Shown piece by piece: positions 1,583 through 12,051 of a stretch of 64,000 nucleotides of DNA. Source of the DNA: Pleurocapsa minor GSE-CHR-MK 17-07R (GTDB taxonomy: Bacteria > Chloroflexota > Anaerolineae > Aggregatilineales > Phototrophicaceae); contig JAHHHY010000006.1 in the NCBI GenBank assembly GCA_019359125.1, forward strand, positions 210,030 to 274,029. Reading direction: 5' to 3'. The notes below the pieces were generated by a model. It did not search any database and was not told where the DNA came from. It was given only the letters and a program-made list of their open reading frames with translations. Made by a program: the position numbers and the translations under genes. Position 1 is the stretch's first letter. Each line of letters starts with the position of its first letter.

Positions 1583-2632
1583 TCAGCCCAGACGCTGCGT
1601 CATGCCCGTGCAGCTGGATTCGTGTGCGGCGGCCATGATCTGAATCTGCGCGATCAACTCGGACGCCTGCACGGGCGGGGGTGCGCCCGCGGTGATGGCC
1701 TGATGCACGGCCTGCCAGTACAGCCGCCAGTCGCCGGGCAGCGTCTCGACCGTGCTTTGCGACGGCTGGGGCTCGCCCGTGTCCAGATACAACTTCCCCC
1801 AATTTTCGGGCGCATCCTGTCCCCACGACGCATCGGCTGGCGACTGTTCGGCGCGCAGCAGGCCTTCCTGCGGGTCCAGCCCAAACTTGATAAACGCGCC
1901 TTTCAGCCCGCGCACGGCAAAACGCGGCACCGGATACGGGTTCAGGTTGTCGGCCTCCAGCAGCACATACAGGCCGTCGGCATAGCCCAGATGCAGGCGG
2001 AACATATCGTCCACGGCGATGACGCCGCGATTGGCGGCAATCTGCGCGGTCACGGTCTGCGGCATGCCGAATAATTGCAGCGTGTGGTCGATCAGGTGCG
2101 GCCCCAGGTCATAGAAGATGCCACCCTGTTCCTCGGCGGATTCGCGCCACACGCCGCGCGGACGGGGCCGATACATCGGCCAGTGCGACTCGAAATGGTG
2201 GATGCGCCCCAGCGTCCCGGCAGCGATAAGCTGCTGCACCGTGCGGAAGTCGCCATCGAAGCGGCGCTGCTGATAGGGGATGAGCTGCCTGCCGGCAGAC
2301 CGGGCGCGCTCGATCAGCATCCGCAGCTCGTCCAGCGACTGCGTGACCGGCTTTTCGACCACGACATGCTTGCCAGCCTCCAGCGCGGCCAGCGCCTGCG
2401 CCACATGAAAGCGATGCGGCGTGGTGATCACGATCAGGTCGATGTCCGGCCGAGCGATGACCTCGTCATAGGATGCGGACACGGCGGCATCCGGGAAGTG
2501 TGCCTTCACCTGGTCGGCGCGGCTGGTGGCGACCGCGGCCAGCGTGAAGCCCCCGACGGCGCGCAGGAACGGCGCATGCAGATAACGCCCGGCCAGCCCG
2601 TATCCCAGCAGTCCCACGCGAATGTTGTCCAT
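1583..2632 (-). CDS. Gfo/Idh/MocA family oxidoreductase
   Basis: GLLGYGLAG Rossmann motif, HVVVEKP, YQQRRFDGDF, GGIFYDLGPHLID. Confidence 0.9.
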   Translation of the reverse strand: MDNIRVGLLGYGLAGRYLHAPFLRAVGGFTLAAVATSRADQVKAHFPDAAVSASYDEVIARPDIDLIVITTPHRFHVAQALAALEAGKHVVVEKPVTQSLDELRMLIERARSAGRQLIPYQQRRFDGDFRTVQQLIAAGTLGRIHHFESHWPMYRPRPRGVWRESAEEQGGIFYDLGPHLIDHTLQLFGMPQTVTAQIAANRGVIAVDDMFRLHLGYADGLYVLLEADNLNPYPVPRFAVRGLKGAFIKFGLDPQEGLLRAEQSPADASWGQDAPENWGKLYLDTGEPQPSQSTVETLPGDWRLYWQAVHQAITAGAPPPVQASELIAQIQIMAAAHESSCTGMTQRLG

Positions 2633-2675
2633 CGTCCGCTTTCACCTTTTCGTTTGCGCACATACCGACGACTGT

Positions 2676-2722
2676 ACCACCGTCCGCGCCGCTGCCGCCA
2701 CCGTCACGCCGGGTGGTGCACA
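2676..2722. repeat. Direct repeat A1 (47 bp), partner at 4720-4767
   Basis: ACCACCGTCCGCGCCGCTGCCGCCACCG-TCACGCCGGGTGGTGCACA; 42 of 48 aligned columns identical to the copy at 4720. Confidence 0.85.
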
Positions 2723-2770
2723 GCACGGCGCTGGAAGGGTGAGATAAGCTCGAGTGTTTCTGCTGTCAAC

Positions 2771-4654
2771 TCAGTGAAGCAGCCCCCAATTGACGGGCGT
2801 ATCCGGCTTCTCCGTCGGGAAGTCGTACAGGGCAGATTCAGCACGAGGTGGCAGCGACTCGCCCACTCCCGTGATGGACGCCGGCTCATAACCCGCAGCA
2901 GGGACGGGAAGCTGTTCAAGCAAGCGTGGGCCCTGTTCCTCGTCGAATGTGAACACAACCAGATTCTGGTAGGGGATGGTGCGCTCACTGAGTACAAACT
3001 TCGTCCATCGGGTATAGAAGCCGTTTTCAGTGAACGCACATGCTTCGCGGAAGTAGCCGAACGTTTCGGCTCCTGGCACGCAGAACGCGGCGTCCAGGGT
3101 CGGGTTGGCGTACAGATAGCGCACCGCGCCGATCAACATGTCACGGCGATTCTCAAACTCCAGCATTGCACGGCGCTCGGGCGATTCATCCAGCAGCACG
3201 ATCAGTGTGCCATCAGCCGGGCGCGGAGCCTGTTCGATAATTGCGCTGAGTATCCAGTGCTGGCCGCGAGGTGCTTCAGCGTAGAGACTATGCTGCCAAA
3301 GCGTGAATGAGGCGTGCCCACCCATCAGTACACCGAACCCCAGCAGGAACAACCAGCGGGTAGAGACAAAGAGGGCTAACAGGCCGCCAAGTACGAGGGC
3401 CAGCTTGCCTAGGCGCGGAGCAATAATGAGAGCAACGATCAGCGCGCCAGCGGCTGTCGCACGGCGCACCCACTTGCCGCCATAGCTGACGATAAGGAGT
3501 GCCATGCCGAAGACGAGCGCGCTGCCCGCCGCCGAGAAGTAGTAAACGCGGTAATCGACATCACGGTACTCACTGACAAGGTAGCCTGCAAAACCCAGCC
3601 CGATGAGCGCGAACCCGGCGAGGCTCGCCGTGACGACTTCGCGCCAGCGTAGGACGGGAGGCCGCCGACGCAGACTGTACCAGACCGCGCCAACAGACAC
3701 GCCGCTGATGGCGCCGGCATAGGGAAGGAAAGGCAACGTTTCGCGCCAGTAGGTATAGCGGTCGAGAAATGCGCCGCCCAGCAACCGCTTGTAGATGCGG
3801 AACACGCTGTTGGCCATGTCCCGCAGGGGAGACTCAGAAGCAAGCGCTGTGGTGAACTGACCGCTTTGATAGAGCTGGTTTTGCGTCGCCACAACAATAC
3901 CATAGCGGGCAAGCAGAATTATGGGGACGACATACCACAGACCTGCTGTTATCCAGACGCGGCGGTTGAAGCGGCCTGCAATCAGGGGGAGCAGCATCGG
4001 CGCCGCAAAGATGATAGGGAACGCAGCCTCATAGGTCATTGCTAAAGCCTGTGAGATGCCTACCGCGACCCACAGCCAACGTGCCGGACGACGAAACTGC
4101 CGTAGGAATAGCCAGATAGCCACAAACGTCCACAGCCCTGACCACGCGATGCTATGGGTTCCTAACCAGAACCAGCCTAGATCTGCATAGAAGACCGTGT
4201 AGAGTAAAGCTGAGGCCGAAGCGACTACACGCGCGGAGGGAAGCAGTTCACCGATGACGAGATAAAGCGCGAAGCCTCGTGCCAGTAGCAGCGCGGCAAA
4301 GACGAGGTTGATACCCACGTGTGAGTCGGGAGTGAGCAGGTAGCCCAGATGTTGAAACGCGGTGACGAAGGGGCGGAGGCTGCTTGGATCGAGTGAGATA
4401 TTGCTTCCAACAAAATCACCTAGTAGAACCCATTCATCACTTAGACCTGACACATTCCAGCCAAAGGGCAGCCAGAGCAGGACAATCACGGCGCTGAGGG
4501 CTGCGAGGGTAATCAGGTCTAGCTGGTGGACGGATGCCCAAACACGAATACGAGGCATCAGGCCATGGTACATCTGATGAATTACGTTAGACACAACACC
4601 CACACAAAATATTCTAAACATTGCCTGAAATAATACACGTAGCTTAGCTAGCAA
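2771..4654 (-). CDS. Polytopic membrane protein with C-terminal extracytoplasmic domain, GT-C/GtrII-like glycosyltransferase candidate
   Basis: About 12 hydrophobic segments, early SGLSDEW acidic loop, soluble C-terminal domain. Visibly lower GC than neighbours. Start uncertain (later ATGs possible). Confidence 0.6.
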   Translation of the reverse strand: MLAKLRVLFQAMFRIFCVGVVSNVIHQMYHGLMPRIRVWASVHQLDLITLAALSAVIVLLWLPFGWNVSGLSDEWVLLGDFVGSNISLDPSSLRPFVTAFQHLGYLLTPDSHVGINLVFAALLLARGFALYLVIGELLPSARVVASASALLYTVFYADLGWFWLGTHSIAWSGLWTFVAIWLFLRQFRRPARWLWVAVGISQALAMTYEAAFPIIFAAPMLLPLIAGRFNRRVWITAGLWYVVPIILLARYGIVVATQNQLYQSGQFTTALASESPLRDMANSVFRIYKRLLGGAFLDRYTYWRETLPFLPYAGAISGVSVGAVWYSLRRRPPVLRWREVVTASLAGFALIGLGFAGYLVSEYRDVDYRVYYFSAAGSALVFGMALLIVSYGGKWVRRATAAGALIVALIIAPRLGKLALVLGGLLALFVSTRWLFLLGFGVLMGGHASFTLWQHSLYAEAPRGQHWILSAIIEQAPRPADGTLIVLLDESPERRAMLEFENRRDMLIGAVRYLYANPTLDAAFCVPGAETFGYFREACAFTENGFYTRWTKFVLSERTIPYQNLVVFTFDEEQGPRLLEQLPVPAAGYEPASITGVGESLPPRAESALYDFPTEKPDTPVNWGLLH

Positions 4655-4719
4655 CTCAATACCTTCGTGAAGCTTTCAAGGATTGATGTCTAATTACCTC
4701 ATGAGCGAGAAACCTGCCA

Positions 4720-4767
4720 ACCACCGTCCGCGTCGCTGTCGCCAACGCTCATGCGGGGTGGTGCACA
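4720..4767. repeat. Direct repeat A2 (48 bp)
   Basis: ACCACCGTCCGCGTCGCTGTCGCCAACGCTCATGCGGGGTGGTGCACA; internal ACCACC...GGTGGT inverted ends. Confidence 0.85.
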
Positions 4768-4858
4768 CGCCCCTCAGGTTCGCGCGCGGGCTGAACTTCA
4801 CGCATAATGATTTTGTTCAGCCGCGCCCTGCAAACCCACAGAACGGTGAGAAAACCCC

Positions 4859-7486
4859 ATGAAGCGCAGTCACGAGCAGCTCAGACTTCAGGAAGCACGG
4901 GACGGGAAAGCGCGCTGGCGGCAGTGGGGACCGTATCTGAGCGAACGGGCGTGGGGAACCGTGCGCGAAGACTACAGCGCCGATGGCGAGGCGTGGGGGT
5001 TCCTCCCGCACGACCAGGCGCGCAGCAAGGCCTATCGCTGGGGCGAAGACGGGCTGGCGGGCATCAGCGACGAGCGCCAGTACCTGTGCTTTGCGCTGGC
5101 GCTGTGGAACGGGCACGACCCGATCCTGAAAGAGCGCGCTTTCGGCCTGGCCGGAGGGGAAGGCAATCACGGGGAAGACGTCAAGGAATACTATTTTTAC
5201 CGCGACAGCACGCCCACGCACAGCTATATGAAGCTGCTCTACAAATATCCACAGCGGGCCTTTCCGTATCAGGCGCTGATTGAAGAAAGCCGCCGACGCG
5301 GGTTTCACGACGCAGAATTTGAACTGCTGGACACCGGCATCTTCGACGATGACCGCTATTTCGATGTCACGGTCGAATACGCCAAGGCTGCGCCTGATGA
5401 CATCCTCGTCCGCATCACAATCGCGAACCGGGCCGCTCAGTCCGCCGACCTGACGGTGCTGCCCACGCTGTGGTTCCGCAATACCTGGTCGTGGGGCTAC
5501 GACGCCGGGCCGATGAACGATGTGCCGCGCAAACCGGCGCTCAGCCTGCGCGGTCCGCAGGAAATCGTGGCCGATCATCCCGTGCTGGGGACGTATACGC
5601 TGGCCACCGGGGCCGCCGACGAGATCATCTTCACCGAGAACGAGACCAATGCCGAGCGCCTGTATGGCGCGCCCAACGCGGGCCCGTATGTGAAAGATGC
5701 CTTCCACGCCTGTATCGTCCATGGGCGGCGCGAGGCGGTCAACCCGGCGCATACGGGTACCAAAGCAGCGGCTGTATATAGGTTGCATCTTCAGGCTGGC
5801 GAGACGCGGACGCTTTCGCTGCGGCTGTCTGGCCGGGACGTGGCGGAGCCATTCGCCGGATTTGACGGCGTATTTGACGAACGCGTGCACGAGGCTGACC
5901 AGTTCTACGCTGACCTTCACGGCGCGTCCCTCAGCCCGGACCAGCAGAACGTGCAGCGGCAGGCGCTGGCCGGCATGCTGTGGAGCAAGCAGTTGTATTA
6001 CTACGACGTGGAACAATGGCTGGCTGGCGACCCGATCGCCGCACCGCCGCCGCAGCGCAGGCACGGGCGTAATCACCAGTGGGAGCATCTCAACAACTTC
6101 GATATCGTCTCGATGCCCGACAAATGGGAGTATCCGTGGTATGCCGGCTGGGATCTGGCGTTTCACTGCCTGCCGCTGGCTGTTGCCGACCCCGACTTTG
6201 CCAAGGCGCAGTTACTGCTGCTCACGCGCGAATGGTACATGCATCCCAACGGACAGCTTCCCGCCTACGAGTGGGCGTTTGGCGATGTCAATCCTCCCGT
6301 GCATGCATGGGCAGCCTGGAAGGTGTATGAACTGGATGGCAAGCAGGACAGCGCCTTCCTCAAGCGCGTGTTCAACAAGATGCTGCTCAATTTCACCTGG
6401 TGGGTGAATCGCAAGGATGCCGAGGGGCGCAATATCTTTCAGGGCGGCTTCCTGGGGCTGGACAACATCAGCCTGTTTGACCGCAGCCGGGCGCTGCCCG
6501 CGGGCGGCGAGCTGGACCAGAGCGACGGCACCGCGTGGATGGGCTTTTTCTGCCTGACGATGATGAATATCGCGCTGGAGCTGGCGACCAGCGATGCTGC
6601 CTACGAAGACATGGCGATCAAGTTTTACGAGCATTTCCTGTGGATCGCGCGCGCTGTGAGCGGGGAAACACGCGGCGGCGTGGGGCTGTGGGACGAGACG
6701 GACGGGTTCTATTACGATGTGCTGCGCTCGGCCGACGGGGGCGTGCATCCGCTGAAAGTGCGTTCGCTGGTGGGGCTGATGCCGCTGATCGCGGTCGAAA
6801 CGGTCGGCCAGGAGACGCTGGACCGTTTCCCTGGATTTGCGCGCAGCATCGCCTGGCTGCGCCGTCATCGCCCGGATCTGGCGGAGAACATGGCCAGTGT
6901 TGAAGTGCCGGGCTATGGCAGCGCGCACCTGTTTGCCATGCCGGACCGCGAGCGCCTGCGCCGGATGCTGCACTATCTGCTGCACGAGGACGAATTCCTG
7001 TCGCCGTATGGCATCCGCTCGTTATCGAAAGCCCACACGACGCCTTATGAGCTGCATTTTGGTGCAGAGCTGTTCAGCGTGCGCTATACCGCCGCCGAGT
7101 CGGACAGCGGCCTGTTTGGCGGCAATTCCAACTGGCGCGGCCCGATCTGGTTTCCCATCAACTATCTGTTCATCGAGGCGCTGCGAAAATATCACCGCTA
7201 TTATGGCGATGCGTTTCGCGTGGAATGCCCCACCGGAAGCGGCGTCATGATGACGCTGAGCCAGGTGGCAGACGAGCTTTCTGCGCGGCTGACGCGCATT
7301 TTCCTGCGCGATGGGTCCGGCCGCCGTCCGGTTTATGCCGGGGCAGAGCGCTTCCAGACCGATCCGCACTGGCGCGATCACCTGCTGTTCTACGAGTATT
7401 TTCATGGTGATGACGGGGCAGGACTGGGCGCCAGCCATCAAACCGGCTGGACGGGCCTGGTCGCCATGCTGATGCAGGGGCTATGA
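4859..7486 (+). CDS. Glycoside hydrolase family 63 (MGH1-like glucosidase)
   Basis: [58 protein letters not shown]. Confidence 0.9.
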
Positions 7487-7513
7487 AGGTTGCGTAACGC
7501 GAGGCCCACCCGG

Positions 7514-7567
7514 ATTGATTCCCGACCGCCCGAAGTCCGATGCTATGGAGGCAGTATATGACGAGGC
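7514..7567 (+). repeat. Direct repeat B1 (54 bp), contains RBS and start codon of the following gene
   Basis: ATTGATTCCCGACCGCCCGAAGTCCGATGCTATGGAGGCAGTATATGACGAGGC; 52/54 identical to 8888-8941; GGAGG then 6 nt then ATG at 7558. Confidence 0.95.
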
Positions 7568-8892
7568 CGCTTATCGGGTCCCTTACTGTGGTCTTGCTCT
7601 GTCTGATGCTGAGCCTGAGCGCGGCGGCGCAGGCGTCAGACGAGACGGTGCTGGTGGCCACGCCGACCGTGGATGGCATCGACATCTATTCAGCCGACAG
7701 CAGCGGGGAAGTCACGCTGGTGCACAGCCTGAACGGGTTTCGTGTCGGCGATCCCATCGATCAGGATTCCTGGTTCATGAGTCGTTACACGGATTTAACT
7801 GTCTCGCTGGATGGGTCGCAGATTGCCTTCACGGCGCAGCGTGACGGTGCGTGGGCTTTATTCGTCTATACCCGCGCGACCGATGCGCTGCTTGAAATCG
7901 CGCTTCCAGAAGAACTCAGTATCCCTATTTGGTCGCCGGATGGAACCTCAATGCTGCTAACAGCGGGGGCTTCGGCACCACCGTTGAGCGATTATGTGTA
8001 TGATTTACAAACGCAGGAGCTGAACCAAATTACCAGCGTGCCACAGTTCAGAGAGAACAGTTTTCACTGGATGCCAGATAGTACAGGGTTATTCTACGTT
8101 GGCTACTGCGAAACCTGTCTACCGGTAAGTCAAGCGCTTTACCAGGTAAGTCGTGATGGAAGTGAGACGACGCGCTTGGCAGTTGCATCTGTGCTGGCGC
8201 CATCAGACTCGGTAGCCTCTATATGCCATCCGACTTGGTCGGAGCCAAATCATCGGATCTATTTTGTCATTGGATGTGTCGGTGGGGGTGGCCAGTCAAA
8301 CGAGTATCTCTACTCTGTCGACTTGGCAGGAAACGTCCGTGCGGAGCTCAGCGGTGGTTTCAACTCCCTATACTCAGATGAATACAATGTCAGGACGATA
8401 AACATTCATCCAAGCCCATTTTCGGACCAAATCTACATCACGCTAGCTTCACAAGGTGGCGATAGTACTGGTCTTTCAAATCGACGTATTCTTCATTTTC
8501 AAGCTCCCGATATTGTGAACATCGTGTATGAACAAACTCAACAAGACGAAGCGATAACGTCCTCATCAATGTCTCCAAACGGCGCAGCTATTGCCTTAGT
8601 CACCTATGGCAGAGGCACCAGTAACGGTTATCTCGAAGTGATCGACGTAACAACAGAGGAACGTATCGTTGGGCAAGGTACAACGCCTTCAGATGTTTGT
8701 GATGTGTTTTGGTCGGATGAGGACACGCTTTTTTACACGGTGGACCCGACAGGGGCATGCGATGTGGCGCGGGCACCCCAAAGTGTCTGGGTGCTGGACA
8801 TAACCAGCGGCGCTACTCAGGAAGTGACCAGCGAGCTGGGCGCGAATGTGTGGATGCTGCGGCGCGTGGTCGTCACAGCGCCCCTTAATTGA
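7558..8892 (+). CDS. Secreted TolB-like/PD40 beta-propeller protein
   Basis: Signal peptide (MTRPLIGSLTVVLLCLMLSLSAAAQA); blades VSLDGSQIAF, PIWSPDG, FHWMPDS, PTWSEP, SMSPNG, VFWSDE; low-GC interior. Confidence 0.8.
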   Translation: MTRPLIGSLTVVLLCLMLSLSAAAQASDETVLVATPTVDGIDIYSADSSGEVTLVHSLNGFRVGDPIDQDSWFMSRYTDLTVSLDGSQIAFTAQRDGAWALFVYTRATDALLEIALPEELSIPIWSPDGTSMLLTAGASAPPLSDYVYDLQTQELNQITSVPQFRENSFHWMPDSTGLFYVGYCETCLPVSQALYQVSRDGSETTRLAVASVLAPSDSVASICHPTWSEPNHRIYFVIGCVGGGGQSNEYLYSVDLAGNVRAELSGGFNSLYSDEYNVRTINIHPSPFSDQIYITLASQGGDSTGLSNRRILHFQAPDIVNIVYEQTQQDEAITSSSMSPNGAAIALVTYGRGTSNGYLEVIDVTTEERIVGQGTTPSDVCDVFWSDEDTLFYTVDPTGACDVARAPQSVWVLDITSGATQEVTSELGANVWMLRRVVVTAPLN

Positions 8893-8941
8893 TTCCCGAC
8901 CGACCGAAGTCCGATGCTATGGAGGCAGTGTATGACGAGGC
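8888..8941 (+). repeat. Direct repeat B2 (54 bp), contains the stop codon of the preceding gene
   Basis: ATTGATTCCCGACCGACCGAAGTCCGATGCTATGGAGGCAGTGTATGACGAGGC; TGA at 8890-8892. Confidence 0.95.
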
Positions 8942-8977
8942 GGTTTGCCTGGCCCAACCAAAGAAGTGGATCTGCCT

Positions 8978-9652
8978 ATGATCAGCGATGACCAGTTTGA
9001 CCGGGTGCTCCAGACGCTGCCCTTCCTGCGGCAGGCGGATGCCCGCGTCGTCACCGACTTTAAGCGCATGGCGTTTGTCGCCCATATTCCCGCTGGCAAA
9101 GATGTGTTTGTCGAGGGCGACGAGGTGCAGGCGATTGCGCTGCTGATGTCTGGTGCCGTGCGCGTGTACAAGATCGGGGAAACCGGACGCGAAATCACCC
9201 TGTATCGGTTTGGATTTGGCGAGTCGTGTATTTTAACTGCCAATGCCATTCTCTCCCGGCAGTTGTTTTCGGCCATCGCCACGGTGGATCAGGATGCGGA
9301 AGCGATCATGATTCCCGCAGAGTCATTCCGCGAGTGGGTGCAGCGCCACGATTTCTGGCGCGACTTCGTGTTCACGATTCTCTCGCAGCGGCTGTCCCGC
9401 CTCATGGAAATCGTCGATGAAGTGGTCTTTCAGCGCATGGATGCGCGCGTCGCGGCGCTGCTGCACGAGCGCGGCAAGACACATAATCCAATCAGCGGAA
9501 CCCATCAGGAAATTGCGGCTGAGCTGGGCAGCTCGCGCGAGGTCATCAGCCGCATCCTGGAAAATCTGGCCCGGCAGGGGATGATTCGCGTGCTGCGCGG
9601 TTCGATTGAAATTCTGGACGCTGATTTACTGGAAAAACAAACGACTCGGTGA
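8978..9652 (+). CDS. Crp/Fnr family transcriptional regulator
   Basis: cNMP-like domain (VRVYKIGETGREITLYRFGFGESC) and C-terminal HTH (THQEIAAELGSSREVISRIL). Confidence 0.9.
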   Translation: MISDDQFDRVLQTLPFLRQADARVVTDFKRMAFVAHIPAGKDVFVEGDEVQAIALLMSGAVRVYKIGETGREITLYRFGFGESCILTANAILSRQLFSAIATVDQDAEAIMIPAESFREWVQRHDFWRDFVFTILSQRLSRLMEIVDEVVFQRMDARVAALLHERGKTHNPISGTHQEIAAELGSSREVISRILENLARQGMIRVLRGSIEILDADLLEKQTTR

Positions 9653-10974: not shown

Positions 10975-11445
10975 CCGGGACAGCCTGTATGCCGTATTGA
11001 TGGCCGAGCGTGCGCTGATGGGCATGGCCGGCGCGCCCTAGCGCCTGGCGGATGCCCTCAGCAATCCATACGCCGTCATTGCCCGCAGGAGCAGGCCGAA
11101 ACGCGCCCGTGTCAGGCCACAGCGATCCGCAAAGCGCCACCTCCCGGTACATACACGACATAGGCCAGAGGCCAGACAAGCCACAGCGTCCGGCTATTTT
11201 TGTCGTGCTTTGCGCGTCACAGTGCCGCATATCCCCTTGCTAACGGGCCGCAAGACGGCCCATCGGCCGGAAAAGTTATGTGAAATTCGTACTGCAACCT
11301 CAGCTGAATCCTCGCAACAACCGAATGTAACCGGCCTGTTTGTGAATGCTGTAAATAAATTAATGATTTTTGCTGAAAACTGCGACATCTCCCCGAAAAC
11401 CCCGCTTTAACCATTAGGCATATAGTAGAAAGTTGGGTAATCGCT

Positions 11446-12051
11446 TTGAAAAAGCGCGATGTTGCCTTTTTGTCGTTTGGGGCAGTGCTCGGTTTGGCAG
11501 CTGGATTGATCCTGCTGACCAGCCCTGACTTGCAGCGCTCACTGTCTGGCACGGCCATGGGCATCGATGCACAGCCGGCTTATCTGATCGTGGATAACGA
11601 GCAGGCACAGCAGTGGCTGCTGTCAGTTTATCCCGATGACGAACAGGCCATCCTTTCGGCGTTTGCCAATGCGGGTCGCCTGGCCACGACGACCACCTTT
11701 CCTGAGACATTCCGCGAAGTGGAAGCCGATATCAATCAGTTGTCAGACCGCGCTTTTGCGGCGCTGACCGGACGTCTGCCCGATGCAGATGCCGAGCCGT
11801 CGTTTGCGCTGCCGGATGCGCTGCTGACGGATACGGCGGCTGGAGACATCATGTCGTGTGTGGGGCTGGATGAAAACCCGTACAACTTCGATGGCTACAG
11901 CCTTGAGCTTTATATGGAGATTCCGTCCACACAGCTGGTGAATCTGCCATCTGGGTGGGCGACACATGACGATCCAATGAGCCGGAGTCTTTTCTGGCAG
12001 CGGCTGGCATGCCACGCGCTGACAGGGGACATGGGGGAGAGGAGCCGTTAG
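11446..12051 (+). CDS. Hypothetical exported or membrane-anchored protein
   Basis: N-terminal hydrophobic segment; TTG start; directly upstream of and co-directional with the giant gene. Confidence 0.65.
   Translation: MKKRDVAFLSFGAVLGLAAGLILLTSPDLQRSLSGTAMGIDAQPAYLIVDNEQAQQWLLSVYPDDEQAILSAFANAGRLATTTTFPETFREVEADINQLSDRAFAALTGRLPDADAEPSFALPDALLTDTAAGDIMSCVGLDENPYNFDGYSLELYMEIPSTQLVNLPSGWATHDDPMSRSLFWQRLACHALTGDMGERSR

Follow-up and report, generated by a model that had tools for sequence, protein, structure and literature searches.

Two single-gene units between long direct repeats in an Anaerolineae genome and their likeness to insertion with long target duplication

INTRODUCTION

Insertion with long target duplication was described in 2000 (Nobusato, Uchiyama, Ohashi, Kobayashi 2000, Gene 259:99) and surveyed in 2010 (Furuta, Abe, Kobayashi 2010, PMC2853133). 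Its hallmarks are direct repeats of >30 bp that are unique in the genome, an insert of low GC content and the lack of a mobility gene; the repeats often span the start or stop codon of a neighbouring gene, and in the published cases a sister strain has one copy of the repeat and no insert (PMC2853133). The class has been described mainly for restriction-modification genes, and ascribed to the DNA breakage that these cause (PMC2853133). It still lacks a mechanism, and discussion has centred on selfish restriction-modification or toxin-antitoxin modules, which might break DNA on their own. Repeat-bracketed insertion scars that lack a recombinase are rare and poorly understood.

The minimal mobile elements of Neisseria are cassettes swapped between conserved flanking genes via transformation and homologous recombination. 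They resemble the units described below in that single accessory genes are exchanged at fixed sites through homology and without a recombinase, but differ in that long flanking genes supply the homology and no direct repeats are left behind.

Here we describe two units, A and B, in a window of 64,000 nt (the whole stretch of DNA analysed). Both are probably horizontally acquired single-gene cassettes: each is a foreign gene lodged in an intergenic spacer, with a copy of a 47-68-nt local sequence on either side. The sequence-only reading had seen in them a possible undescribed route of gene acquisition. The route is not undescribed, because the layout matches that published for long target duplication: an insert of 1-3 kb, direct repeats of >30 bp found nowhere else in the genome and often lying across a neighbour's start or stop codon, no mobility gene, insert GC below the genome average and an unsolved mechanism. 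What differs is the cargo, which here consists of a glycosyltransferase in one unit and a secreted propeller in the other, and elsewhere in the genome of P450, WD40 and other ordinary accessory genes. A further difference is that cassette A, together with its repeats, also stands in a second and unrelated setting, an outcome not expected of pure target duplication.

RESULTS

Each gene lies between its own pair of unique direct repeats

The features of the two units are collected in Table 1. The direct repeats of ~50 bp noticed around each gene are real, at 47/48 nt for pair A and 54-68 nt for pair B (88% identity over 68 nt, rising to 96% over the first 54 nt). Using blastn against all 23 contigs of the 4.85-Mb genome, each pair was found as two copies and nothing further. 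Both units are identical base for base in the assemblies L208 (JGI) and L209 (Logan). As had been proposed, pairs A and B have no sequence in common, and a common core was likewise absent among 19 such repeats, whose best pairwise match was no better than between random segments (p = 0.23). The repeats of units A and B had no Rfam match and folded no better than shuffled sequence.

Table 1. Features of units A and B and of their flanks (positions in the window)
Feature	Position	Strand	Remarks
Gfo/Idh/MocA-family oxidoreductase	1583..2632	-	Pfam PF01408/PF02894/PF22725; NCBIfam PRK11579
Block common to another organism (L201/L207)	2656..4767	-	92% identity
Repeat A copy 1	2676-2722	unstranded	47 nt; 87.5% identical to copy 2, one indel
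Cargo A, GT-C/PMT_2-like polytopic membrane protein (glycosyltransferase family 39-like)	2771..4654	-	weak PMT_2 match
Repeat A copy 2	4720-4767	unstranded	48 nt
GH63/MGH1-like glucosidase	4859..7486	+	875 aa; Pfam PF22422, PF03200
Repeat B copy 1	7514-7581	+	68 nt
Cargo B, secreted beta-propeller	7558..8892	+	444 aa; TolB/PD40/Tricorn_N-like; signal peptide
Repeat B copy 2	8888-8955	+	68 nt
19-codon remnant or leader ORF (MTRRFAWPNQRSGSAYDQR*)	8932..8991	+	read directly from sequence
Crp/Fnr-family regulator	8978..9652	+	224 aa; Pfam PF00027, PF13545

The repeat borders are sharp and coincide with a shift in GC content. Between the repeats, GC is 0.574 in unit A and 0.535 in unit B (10th and 3rd percentiles, respectively, of same-length genome segments) against a mean of 0.613 for the whole genome, bearing out the low GC first remarked for both genes.

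The units lack recombinases, attC sites and terminal inverted repeats

Pfam and NCBIfam scans of the units and all neighbouring genes revealed no recombinase, transposase or integrase, so that the recombinase-less state claimed for both units holds. The whole genome gave only two tyrosine- and three serine-recombinase matches, all on contigs other than that of units A and B; the two tyrosine-type (PF00589) matches are on contigs C19 and C22. The suggestion that a candidate recombinase might be encoded elsewhere thus finds a handful of genes, none of them near any unit.

A pattern search for attC (RYYYAAC ... GTTRRRY) at the borders of both units found none, and terminal inverted repeats were absent from both, in agreement with the original observation that attC cores and insertion sequence ends are missing. 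Integron gene cassettes share with these units single promoterless or compact genes inserted singly, with the recombinase outside the cassette, but no attC hairpin, RYYYAAC/GTTRRRY core, IntI or attI is present here, and the bracketing repeats are long, direct and site-specific; with no attC at either border and only the two PF00589 matches in the genome, we rejected this identity. An insertion sequence or transposon was rejected as well, there being no transposase domain, a best terminal inverted match of only 7-9 nt and a duplication of 47-68 nt versus the 2-15 bp of such elements.

Unit A carries a glycosyltransferase-like gene and recurs in an unrelated context

Cassette A occupies the spacer that separates the divergent oxidoreductase and glucosidase genes. 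On the minus strand the oxidoreductase is the resident gene downstream, and repeat A copy 1 sits 44-90 nt upstream of its start codon. Cargo A (gene GC 0.58) is 595-627 aa long, databases placing its start at 595 or 600 aa, and its PMT_2 score of 20.9 is under the Pfam cut-off of 26.1 bits. An AT-rich region (4655-4719) lies upstream of the gene, with promoter-like hexamers at 4659-4630. That cargo A and cargo B may be envelope genes is a fair guess.

Only two homologues of cargo A (93% and 66%) were found among 5.8 billion proteins. The sole close relative of cassette A is a filled form with both repeats, located between unrelated genes. The block common to the two organisms comprises the upstream repeat, the glycosyltransferase, the downstream repeat and 20 nt; beyond it the flanks are unrelated and the genes around the cassette differ.

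The repeats of unit B supply the start and stop signals of the propeller gene

Cassette B is placed between the glucosidase and Crp regulator genes, the latter being the resident gene downstream. Repeat B copy 1 holds a GGAGG ribosome-binding site (7547-7551), the ATG (7558) and the first codons of the propeller, whilst the stop codon TGA (8890-8892) falls within copy 2; both ends of the cassette therefore take a signal from the duplicated stretch, the 5' end its ribosome-binding site and ATG, the 3' end its stop codon. The duplicated ATG is also the first codon of the 19-codon ORF, which extends over the start of the Crp gene. A Crp/Fnr orthologue in another genome (G057) starts at the equivalent ATG without a repeat-B-like leader.

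Cargo B (gene GC 0.534) has only five homologues among the same 5.8 billion proteins, at 51-61% identity, and the match to them is confined to the coding body (7624-8886). In every host, GC in this family is under that of the surroundings. The homologues of both cargos are thus rare, and they sit in unrelated contexts.

The gene between the two units had been taken for a housekeeping gene. It is an accessory gene of patchy distribution: only about one-quarter of the genomes of the genus have the glucosidase, and its neighbours differ from one genome to the next.

The layout recurs in the genome

The genome-wide search for repeat-flanked reading frames that the sequence-only reading had proposed showed that the pattern recurs: besides A and B, the genome has at least 10 units of this layout, whose cargo is varied and includes no recombinase. 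The layout is also seen in related contigs (L102). The cargo includes a P450, WD40/PD40/SH3 secreted proteins, an HNH nuclease, an Mrr-like protein, a PARIS-like defence pair and a TetR plus SDR pair; the supposed restriction to surface genes does not stand. For half of the 20 repeat pairs examined, the DNA between the copies ranks among the lowest 5% in GC. Short local direct repeats in general are only ~2-4 times commoner here than in control loci.

Elsewhere in the genome, many of the repeats duplicate 3' ends of conserved genes, others are terminators, and one duplicates the 3' half of tRNA-Gln. On contig C12, three copies of one handle at a single site part successive cassettes. Repeat copies have diverged by 4-18%. 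Nine repeat pairs duplicate the 3' end of a neighbour's coding sequence; in these, differences between the copies are distributed 14:7:30 over codon positions 1:2:3. The displaced copy therefore diverged while coding, suggesting a related functional gene as its source. The bias could also be accounted for by a later allelic replacement of the neighbour gene, repeat copy included, with a relative lacking the insert as donor.

Classical end joining is lacking, as no Ku is encoded in the genome. The genome does encode the DNA-uptake channel ComEC, which is weak evidence of competence because ComEC is widespread.

Empty sites

No empty site was found for unit A or B, the nearest relatives having ~76% nucleotide identity at most in the flanks, so for these two units the insertion and duplication are inferred from the layout only. 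For the unit on contig C19, genus relatives show the flanking conserved blocks ~100-200 bp apart without the cargo.

DISCUSSION

Units A and B are likely to be insertions of the published long-target-duplication class. Whether the best explanation as a whole is that of acquired single-gene cassettes of this class, moved via homology handles, seems to us evenly poised. The handle mechanism itself is put forward tentatively, and could well be wrong. Under it, a cassette bearing ~35-130 nt of host-like sequence as a handle would enter as a circle, or as a fragment with inward-pointing ends, and would be integrated where the handle matches the chromosome, through RecA-type recombination (Campbell-type or 'ends-in' integration). 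A handle would be expected on both sides because such integration necessarily leaves two copies. The two copies could later loop the cassette out, allowing it to spread to relatives with the handle; the initial joining of foreign gene and handle would have been illegitimate. Campbell-type integration likewise gives a homology-insert-homology product, is reversible via the copies, forms arrays by repeated events and needs no dedicated recombinase, but its known examples are plasmids and laboratory constructs that share hundreds of bases with their target, rather than natural single-gene circles with the short putative handles considered here, and no circle was found.

The sequence-only reading had offered two candidate mechanisms, circle integration through short homology and long target duplication. 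We lean towards homology handles over a staggered cut, as suggested by the codon bias, the triple copy on C12, the second context of cassette A, the lack of Ku and the presence of ComEC. The occurrence of cassette A in two unrelated contexts is nonetheless hard to explain, because a circle needs the handle already at its target. The three-copy array on C12 is an exact fit to neither simple model, and the mere 2-4-fold excess of short local direct repeats over control loci also weighs against our reading.

With fresh target duplication, opposite strands would be nicked 47-68 nt apart, the overhangs filled and a foreign fragment ligated, so that the repeats are purely target-derived. This accounts for the order of flank, repeat, insert, repeat and flank with sharp borders, for repeat sequences that vary by site and share no core, and for the published empty sites with one repeat copy (PMC2853133); repeat B, too, resembles a native spacer bearing the Crp leader ORF. 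We nevertheless regard it as unlikely. A second organism has cassette A with this very repeat pair amid unrelated genes, a third-codon-position bias is unexpected from neutral decay of a new duplicate, and there is no Ku for end joining. Moreover, a divergence of 4-18% would make the insertions very old, yet their foreign composition has been kept.

Tandem duplication is the commonest bacterial rearrangement, and could have produced the layout with no special insertion route had the stretch from repeat through cargo been duplicated and the second copy then lost save its first 47-68 nt. After the second repeat copy in unit B, the C6 unit and L102 there is a truncated ORF start like that of the cargo itself, as expected of such a remnant, and the repeats would move along with the cassette. 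The pathway has been proposed in print as an alternative (PMC3457768). It would require two events at each of >10 sites and a clean deletion end every time, no extra duplicated pieces of cargo 3' sequence being seen after the second copy, and predicts neither the strong enrichment of low-GC cargo nor the third-codon-position bias. We consider it quite unlikely.

A further candidate is that of decayed or trans-mobilised site-specific elements, in which the repeats would be attL and attR and the integrase would have been lost or act from elsewhere. The many genome repeats that are conserved gene 3' ends, with the tRNA-Gln 3' half among them, are a classic integrase target; the third-codon differences would fit a surrogate gene end borne by the element, and the C12 array its repeated use of one site. 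Cis-mobilisable elements, and the islets that tyrosine integrases leave at tRNA genes or gene 3' ends, show the same combination of gene 3' ends as repeats, a displaced copy that is a diverged coding fragment, units without their own integrase and arrays at one site. They depend, however, on an integrase-specific core and an integrase-bearing partner, and here there is neither a core shared among the repeats nor more than those few tyrosine- and serine-recombinase homologues, all remote from the units. The inserts are clean single genes without integrase remnants, and repeats A and B are in spacers rather than gene 3' ends, making this origin very unlikely.

Regulatory or chance similarity, with the repeats as operator or leader copies kept by selection rather than a recombination scar, is extremely improbable: the repeat does lie upstream of the cargo and of the next same-strand gene in both units, but 54 nt at 96% and 48 nt at 87.5% far exceed operator length and chance, there is no structure or Rfam match, the borders coincide with the GC shift and equivalent repeats elsewhere in the genome are coding 3' ends or terminators.

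Two facts narrow the mechanism of long target duplication, namely the coding-constrained divergence of displaced copies and the presence of cassette A with its repeats in a second unrelated context. A dozen examples here with mostly ordinary cargo argue that the route is supplied by the host, not by the cargo. A broader reading, speculative and in our view unlikely to hold, is that ordinary accessory genes of this Anaerolineae lineage (surface glycosyltransferases, secreted propellers, P450s and genes for defence) move about as cassettes without a recombinase, each looping out and back in through a short host-derived handle and the homologous recombination of the host. Some of these cassettes, such as cassette A, may be self-contained, with defined ends and subterminal direct repeats, and land in unrelated sites. 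Delivery might occur via DNA uptake or gene-transfer-agent-like particles. If this is true, long target duplication would be a general mechanism of gene flux, independent of a nuclease or toxin in the cargo, and looping through short homology would explain how single accessory genes can move among related bacteria almost without integrases or transposases.

Two low-GC genes between unique direct repeats

The host genome comprises 4.85 Mb in 23 contigs at ~61% GC, and the window corresponds to C13:210030-274029. The sequence-only reading had described two low-GC genes, each framed by its own repeat pair, and both arrangements are real: GC between the repeats is 0.574 in unit A (the glycosyltransferase gene) and 0.535 in unit B (the propeller gene), the 10th and 3rd percentiles, respectively, of same-length genome segments. 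On the strand of the cargo gene, both units run repeat, cargo, repeat, next resident gene. In all four repeat copies the similarity breaks off sharply at either end.

Positions of the genes, repeats and repeat-bounded units (window coordinates unless a contig is named)
Feature	Position	Strand	Repeat
Metallo-beta-lactamase-fold lactonase-like gene	618-1460	minus	
Gfo/Idh/MocA oxidoreductase	1583-2632	minus	
Repeat A copies	2676-2722 and 4720-4767		47/48 nt, 87.5%, one indel
Membrane protein, 595-627 aa, weak PMT_2 (GT-C glycosyltransferase) match	2771-4654	minus	
GH63/MGH1-like glucosidase	4859-7486	plus	
Repeat B copies	7514-7581 and 8888-8955		68 nt at 88%, first 54 nt at 96%
Secreted TolB/PD40-like beta-propeller	7558-8892	plus	
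Crp/Fnr regulator	8978-9652	plus	
C1 unit (L114)	C1:9923-12890		92 nt, gene end
C12 array (L115)	C12:60502-63253		three copies, 59-123 nt, 96-98%
C20 tRNA-Gln unit	C20:13748-15677		49 nt, 88%
C21 unit	C21:1631-6864		30 nt, 97%
Metagenome unit, other organism	L102:3405-4674		128 nt, 88%
Soil metagenome unit	L157:1420-2728		64 nt, 97%
Contig with propeller homologue P0002	L104:1-1516		25 nt, 96%

The two copies of each pair differ by substitutions, and the window is 100% identical to two other assemblies (a JGI metagenome contig over 12.6 kb and a Logan contig from another run over 11.7 kb), which rules out an assembly artefact. With blastn, the partner copy was the sole whole-genome match of each repeat, so a dispersed, REP-like family is also ruled out. 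A riboswitch, small RNA or attC-like structure was rejected, since the repeats gave no Rfam match at E up to 0.1 and their folding was not unusual (z-scores -0.4 to +1.2). The absence of attC cores at the borders was confirmed, and neither unit has terminal inverted repeats. Across 400 genomes of the class, repeat A returned only short GC-rich low-complexity matches; a 45-nt match in another genome (G066) does not share its context. Elsewhere in the window, 11435-12000 (566 nt) has a second copy, 91% identical, at C22:163471-164036 of the same genome.

The gene between the units had been taken for a housekeeping gene, and here the earlier reading has to be corrected: the glucosidase is found in about a quarter of same-genus genomes, with different neighbours in each, and its nearest homologues (78% and 76%) occur in other contexts. 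Otherwise the observation is real. No empty site for unit A or B was found among the genus representatives compared (at most 76% identical), and scans of genome and metagenome contigs with the glucosidase as the query were swamped by conservation of that gene across phyla. The Crp orthologue in G057, another genome, has no repeat-B-like leader.

Relation of the repeats to their cargo

Repeat B contributes to the reading frame that it encloses. Copy 1 begins 27 nt past the glucosidase stop and holds both a GGAGG (7547-7551) and the ATG at 7558, so the first codons of the propeller gene (MTR...) lie within the repeat. The stop codon TGA (8890-8892) is made from the first bases of copy 2, which then opens a 19-codon ORF overlapping the Crp start. 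The propeller is a few residues shorter at both ends than its five homologues, and nucleotide homology to them is confined to 7624-8886. Given these repeat-borne signals and the limits of the homology, unit B appears to be a gene body placed in a spacer, the duplicated spacer providing the translation start and stop signals. Those five homologues, at 51-61% identity, are the only ones among 5.8 billion proteins; their contexts are all unrelated, and in every host the gene lies 5-10 GC points under its surroundings. On the G021 contig carrying one of them (P0002), a 25-nt repeat at the contig start and at 1492-1516 encloses the 385-aa gene that lies upstream of this homologue, and two copies of a 51-nt repeat (88%) stand 76 nt apart at 1329-1455.

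Unit A has its repeat 66-113 nt before the glycosyltransferase start and 44-90 nt before the oxidoreductase start; an AT-rich upstream region with promoter-like hexamers belongs to the cassette itself. Among the 5.8 billion proteins, just two homologues of the glycosyltransferase were found (93% and 66% identity). Two samples of another organism (L201 and L207) also contain cassette A, at 92% identity. The block shared with these loci consists of the upstream repeat, which in that organism has lost 26 nt between two GTTGGC motifs, the glycosyltransferase gene, the downstream repeat and 20 more nt. Beyond it, within the 3.8-kb contig of the second organism, the two sequences show no relation; the genes next to the block lack homologues in the host genome. 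This pattern suggests either that repeat pair A moves with its cassette or that the site was rebuilt at both sides.

Recurrence in the genome and beyond

A genome self-comparison, limited to pairs of at most 140 nt and at least 82% identity lying as local direct repeats 0.3-8 kb apart, gave 47 short pairs, and 20 of these were inspected. The recurrence test that the earlier reading had proposed came out positive: the enclosed DNA was in the lowest 5% for GC in half of the inspected pairs (10/20) and in the lowest 10% in 15/20. Short local repeats number 9.7 per Mb in the host genome versus 2.2 and 9.4 in control loci from other phyla, a modest enrichment; of the 10 control pairs, only about one surrounds low-GC DNA.

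Typically, the repeats consist of the final 40-120 nt of the conserved gene next door, stop codon included, or of that gene's terminator hairpin. The cargo is diverse and includes no recombinase: a second PMT_2-like protein, an FRG-domain protein, a PD40+SH3 propeller, an HNH nuclease, a cytochrome P450, an HSDR_N/Mrr-like protein, SH3 and WD40 secreted proteins, an FGE-sulfatase-fold protein, an RNase T-like exonuclease, a TetR + SDR pair and an AAA_15/21 + DUF4435 pair. The last of these, in the C21 unit, has a GC of 0.38-0.39 and the same domain pair as PARIS-type anti-phage systems. The two PMT_2-like glycosyltransferases, in the window and in the C1 unit, have no detectable relation. For the C6 unit with the FGE-sulfatase fold, a diversity-generating retroelement (template/variable repeat) was ruled out since the differences are not adenine-specific.

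For the C19 unit, relatives within the genus have both conserved flanking blocks ~100-200 bp apart and lack the cargo, so this unit is an insertion. The C12 locus, with three copies of the end of one 457-aa gene, looks like an array built at a single site: the copies separate a PD40+SH3 propeller gene from a small ORF and an HNH nuclease gene, and more low-GC genes follow. Its middle copy, an internal 59-nt piece, fits neither target duplication nor a single crossover in its simple form. At C1, low-GC foreign DNA flanks the second copy on both sides (the PMT_2-like membrane protein on one, the FRG-domain gene, GC 0.43, on the other), which suggests two insertions in succession at one gene's end. 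At C20, the 3' half of a tRNA-Gln gene recurs 1.85 kb downstream; the pair encloses only the TetR regulator and the short-chain dehydrogenase, without an integrase, and next to the second copy comes a low-GC gene for a secreted protein.

The layout of unit B recurs on a metagenome contig (L102, ENA) of another organism, which carries the propeller homologue P0004. Its repeat runs from the end of a WD40 gene across a ribosome-binding site into a signal peptide, of which it covers the first 42 nt; one PD40 gene is enclosed, and a 33-codon truncated signal-peptide ORF follows the second copy. In an unrelated soil bacterium (L157), a repeat pair surrounds 1.18 kb with a GC of 0.47 versus 0.61 for the contig, so the same kind of scar is also seen outside the host lineage.

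Precedent and mechanism

The route had been proposed as undescribed. [quoted passage not shown] 2000; Furuta et al. 2010, PMC2853133). The published cases are restriction-modification genes flanked by direct repeats of 46-420 bp that are unique, without any other mobile element; the inserts often have a low GC, and the start or stop codon of a neighbour is often included in the repeats (PMC2853133). DNA breakage caused by the cargo was suspected by those authors (PMC2853133).

Nine pairs have repeats that duplicate a coding 3' end; in these, the differences between copies are distributed 14:7:30 over codon positions 1:2:3 (chi-square ~16 versus equal thirds). Such a bias is not expected from neutral decay of a new duplicate, and the third-position excess suggests that the displaced copy derives from a related functional gene; alternatively, the attached copy could later have been overwritten by a relative's allele. 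Ku is absent from the host genome and ComEC is present. Together, the codon bias, the second context of cassette A and the Ku/ComEC complement lean towards short-homology recombination and away from a fresh staggered cut with end joining. Recombination through a homologous handle, a stretch of 35-130 nt of host-like sequence, is thus the mechanism that we tentatively prefer. A cassette joined to such a handle would enter the chromosome via a single crossover, which would necessarily duplicate the handle, and could loop out again.

Target duplication at a staggered cut is unlikely in the light of the same three results. That the units are what is left of tandem duplications after partial deletion is improbable; tandem duplication with subsequent homologous substitution has been published as an alternative (PMC3457768). 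Decayed or trans-acting integrase sites are also improbable. A search for a candidate recombinase elsewhere in the genome had been suggested; whole-genome matches number only two tyrosine and three serine recombinases, every one on other contigs, and domain scans of the neighbours (Pfam and NCBIfam) found no mobility gene within or adjoining either unit. A 17-19-nt motif (TTCCCGACCG..CGAAGTC) links repeat B with the repeat of the C1 unit and is absent elsewhere in the genome. It is treated as chance because the best repeat-versus-repeat match was no better than that of random genomic segments (p = 0.23), and a shared recombination core was rejected. Every simple model, including recombination through a handle, needs an extra step for the three-copy C12 array and for the second context of cassette A.

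The value of these observations lies in a dozen examples, mostly with ordinary cargo, in one integrase-poor genome, in the codon-position evidence, and in the presence of one cassette, together with its repeats, in a second context.
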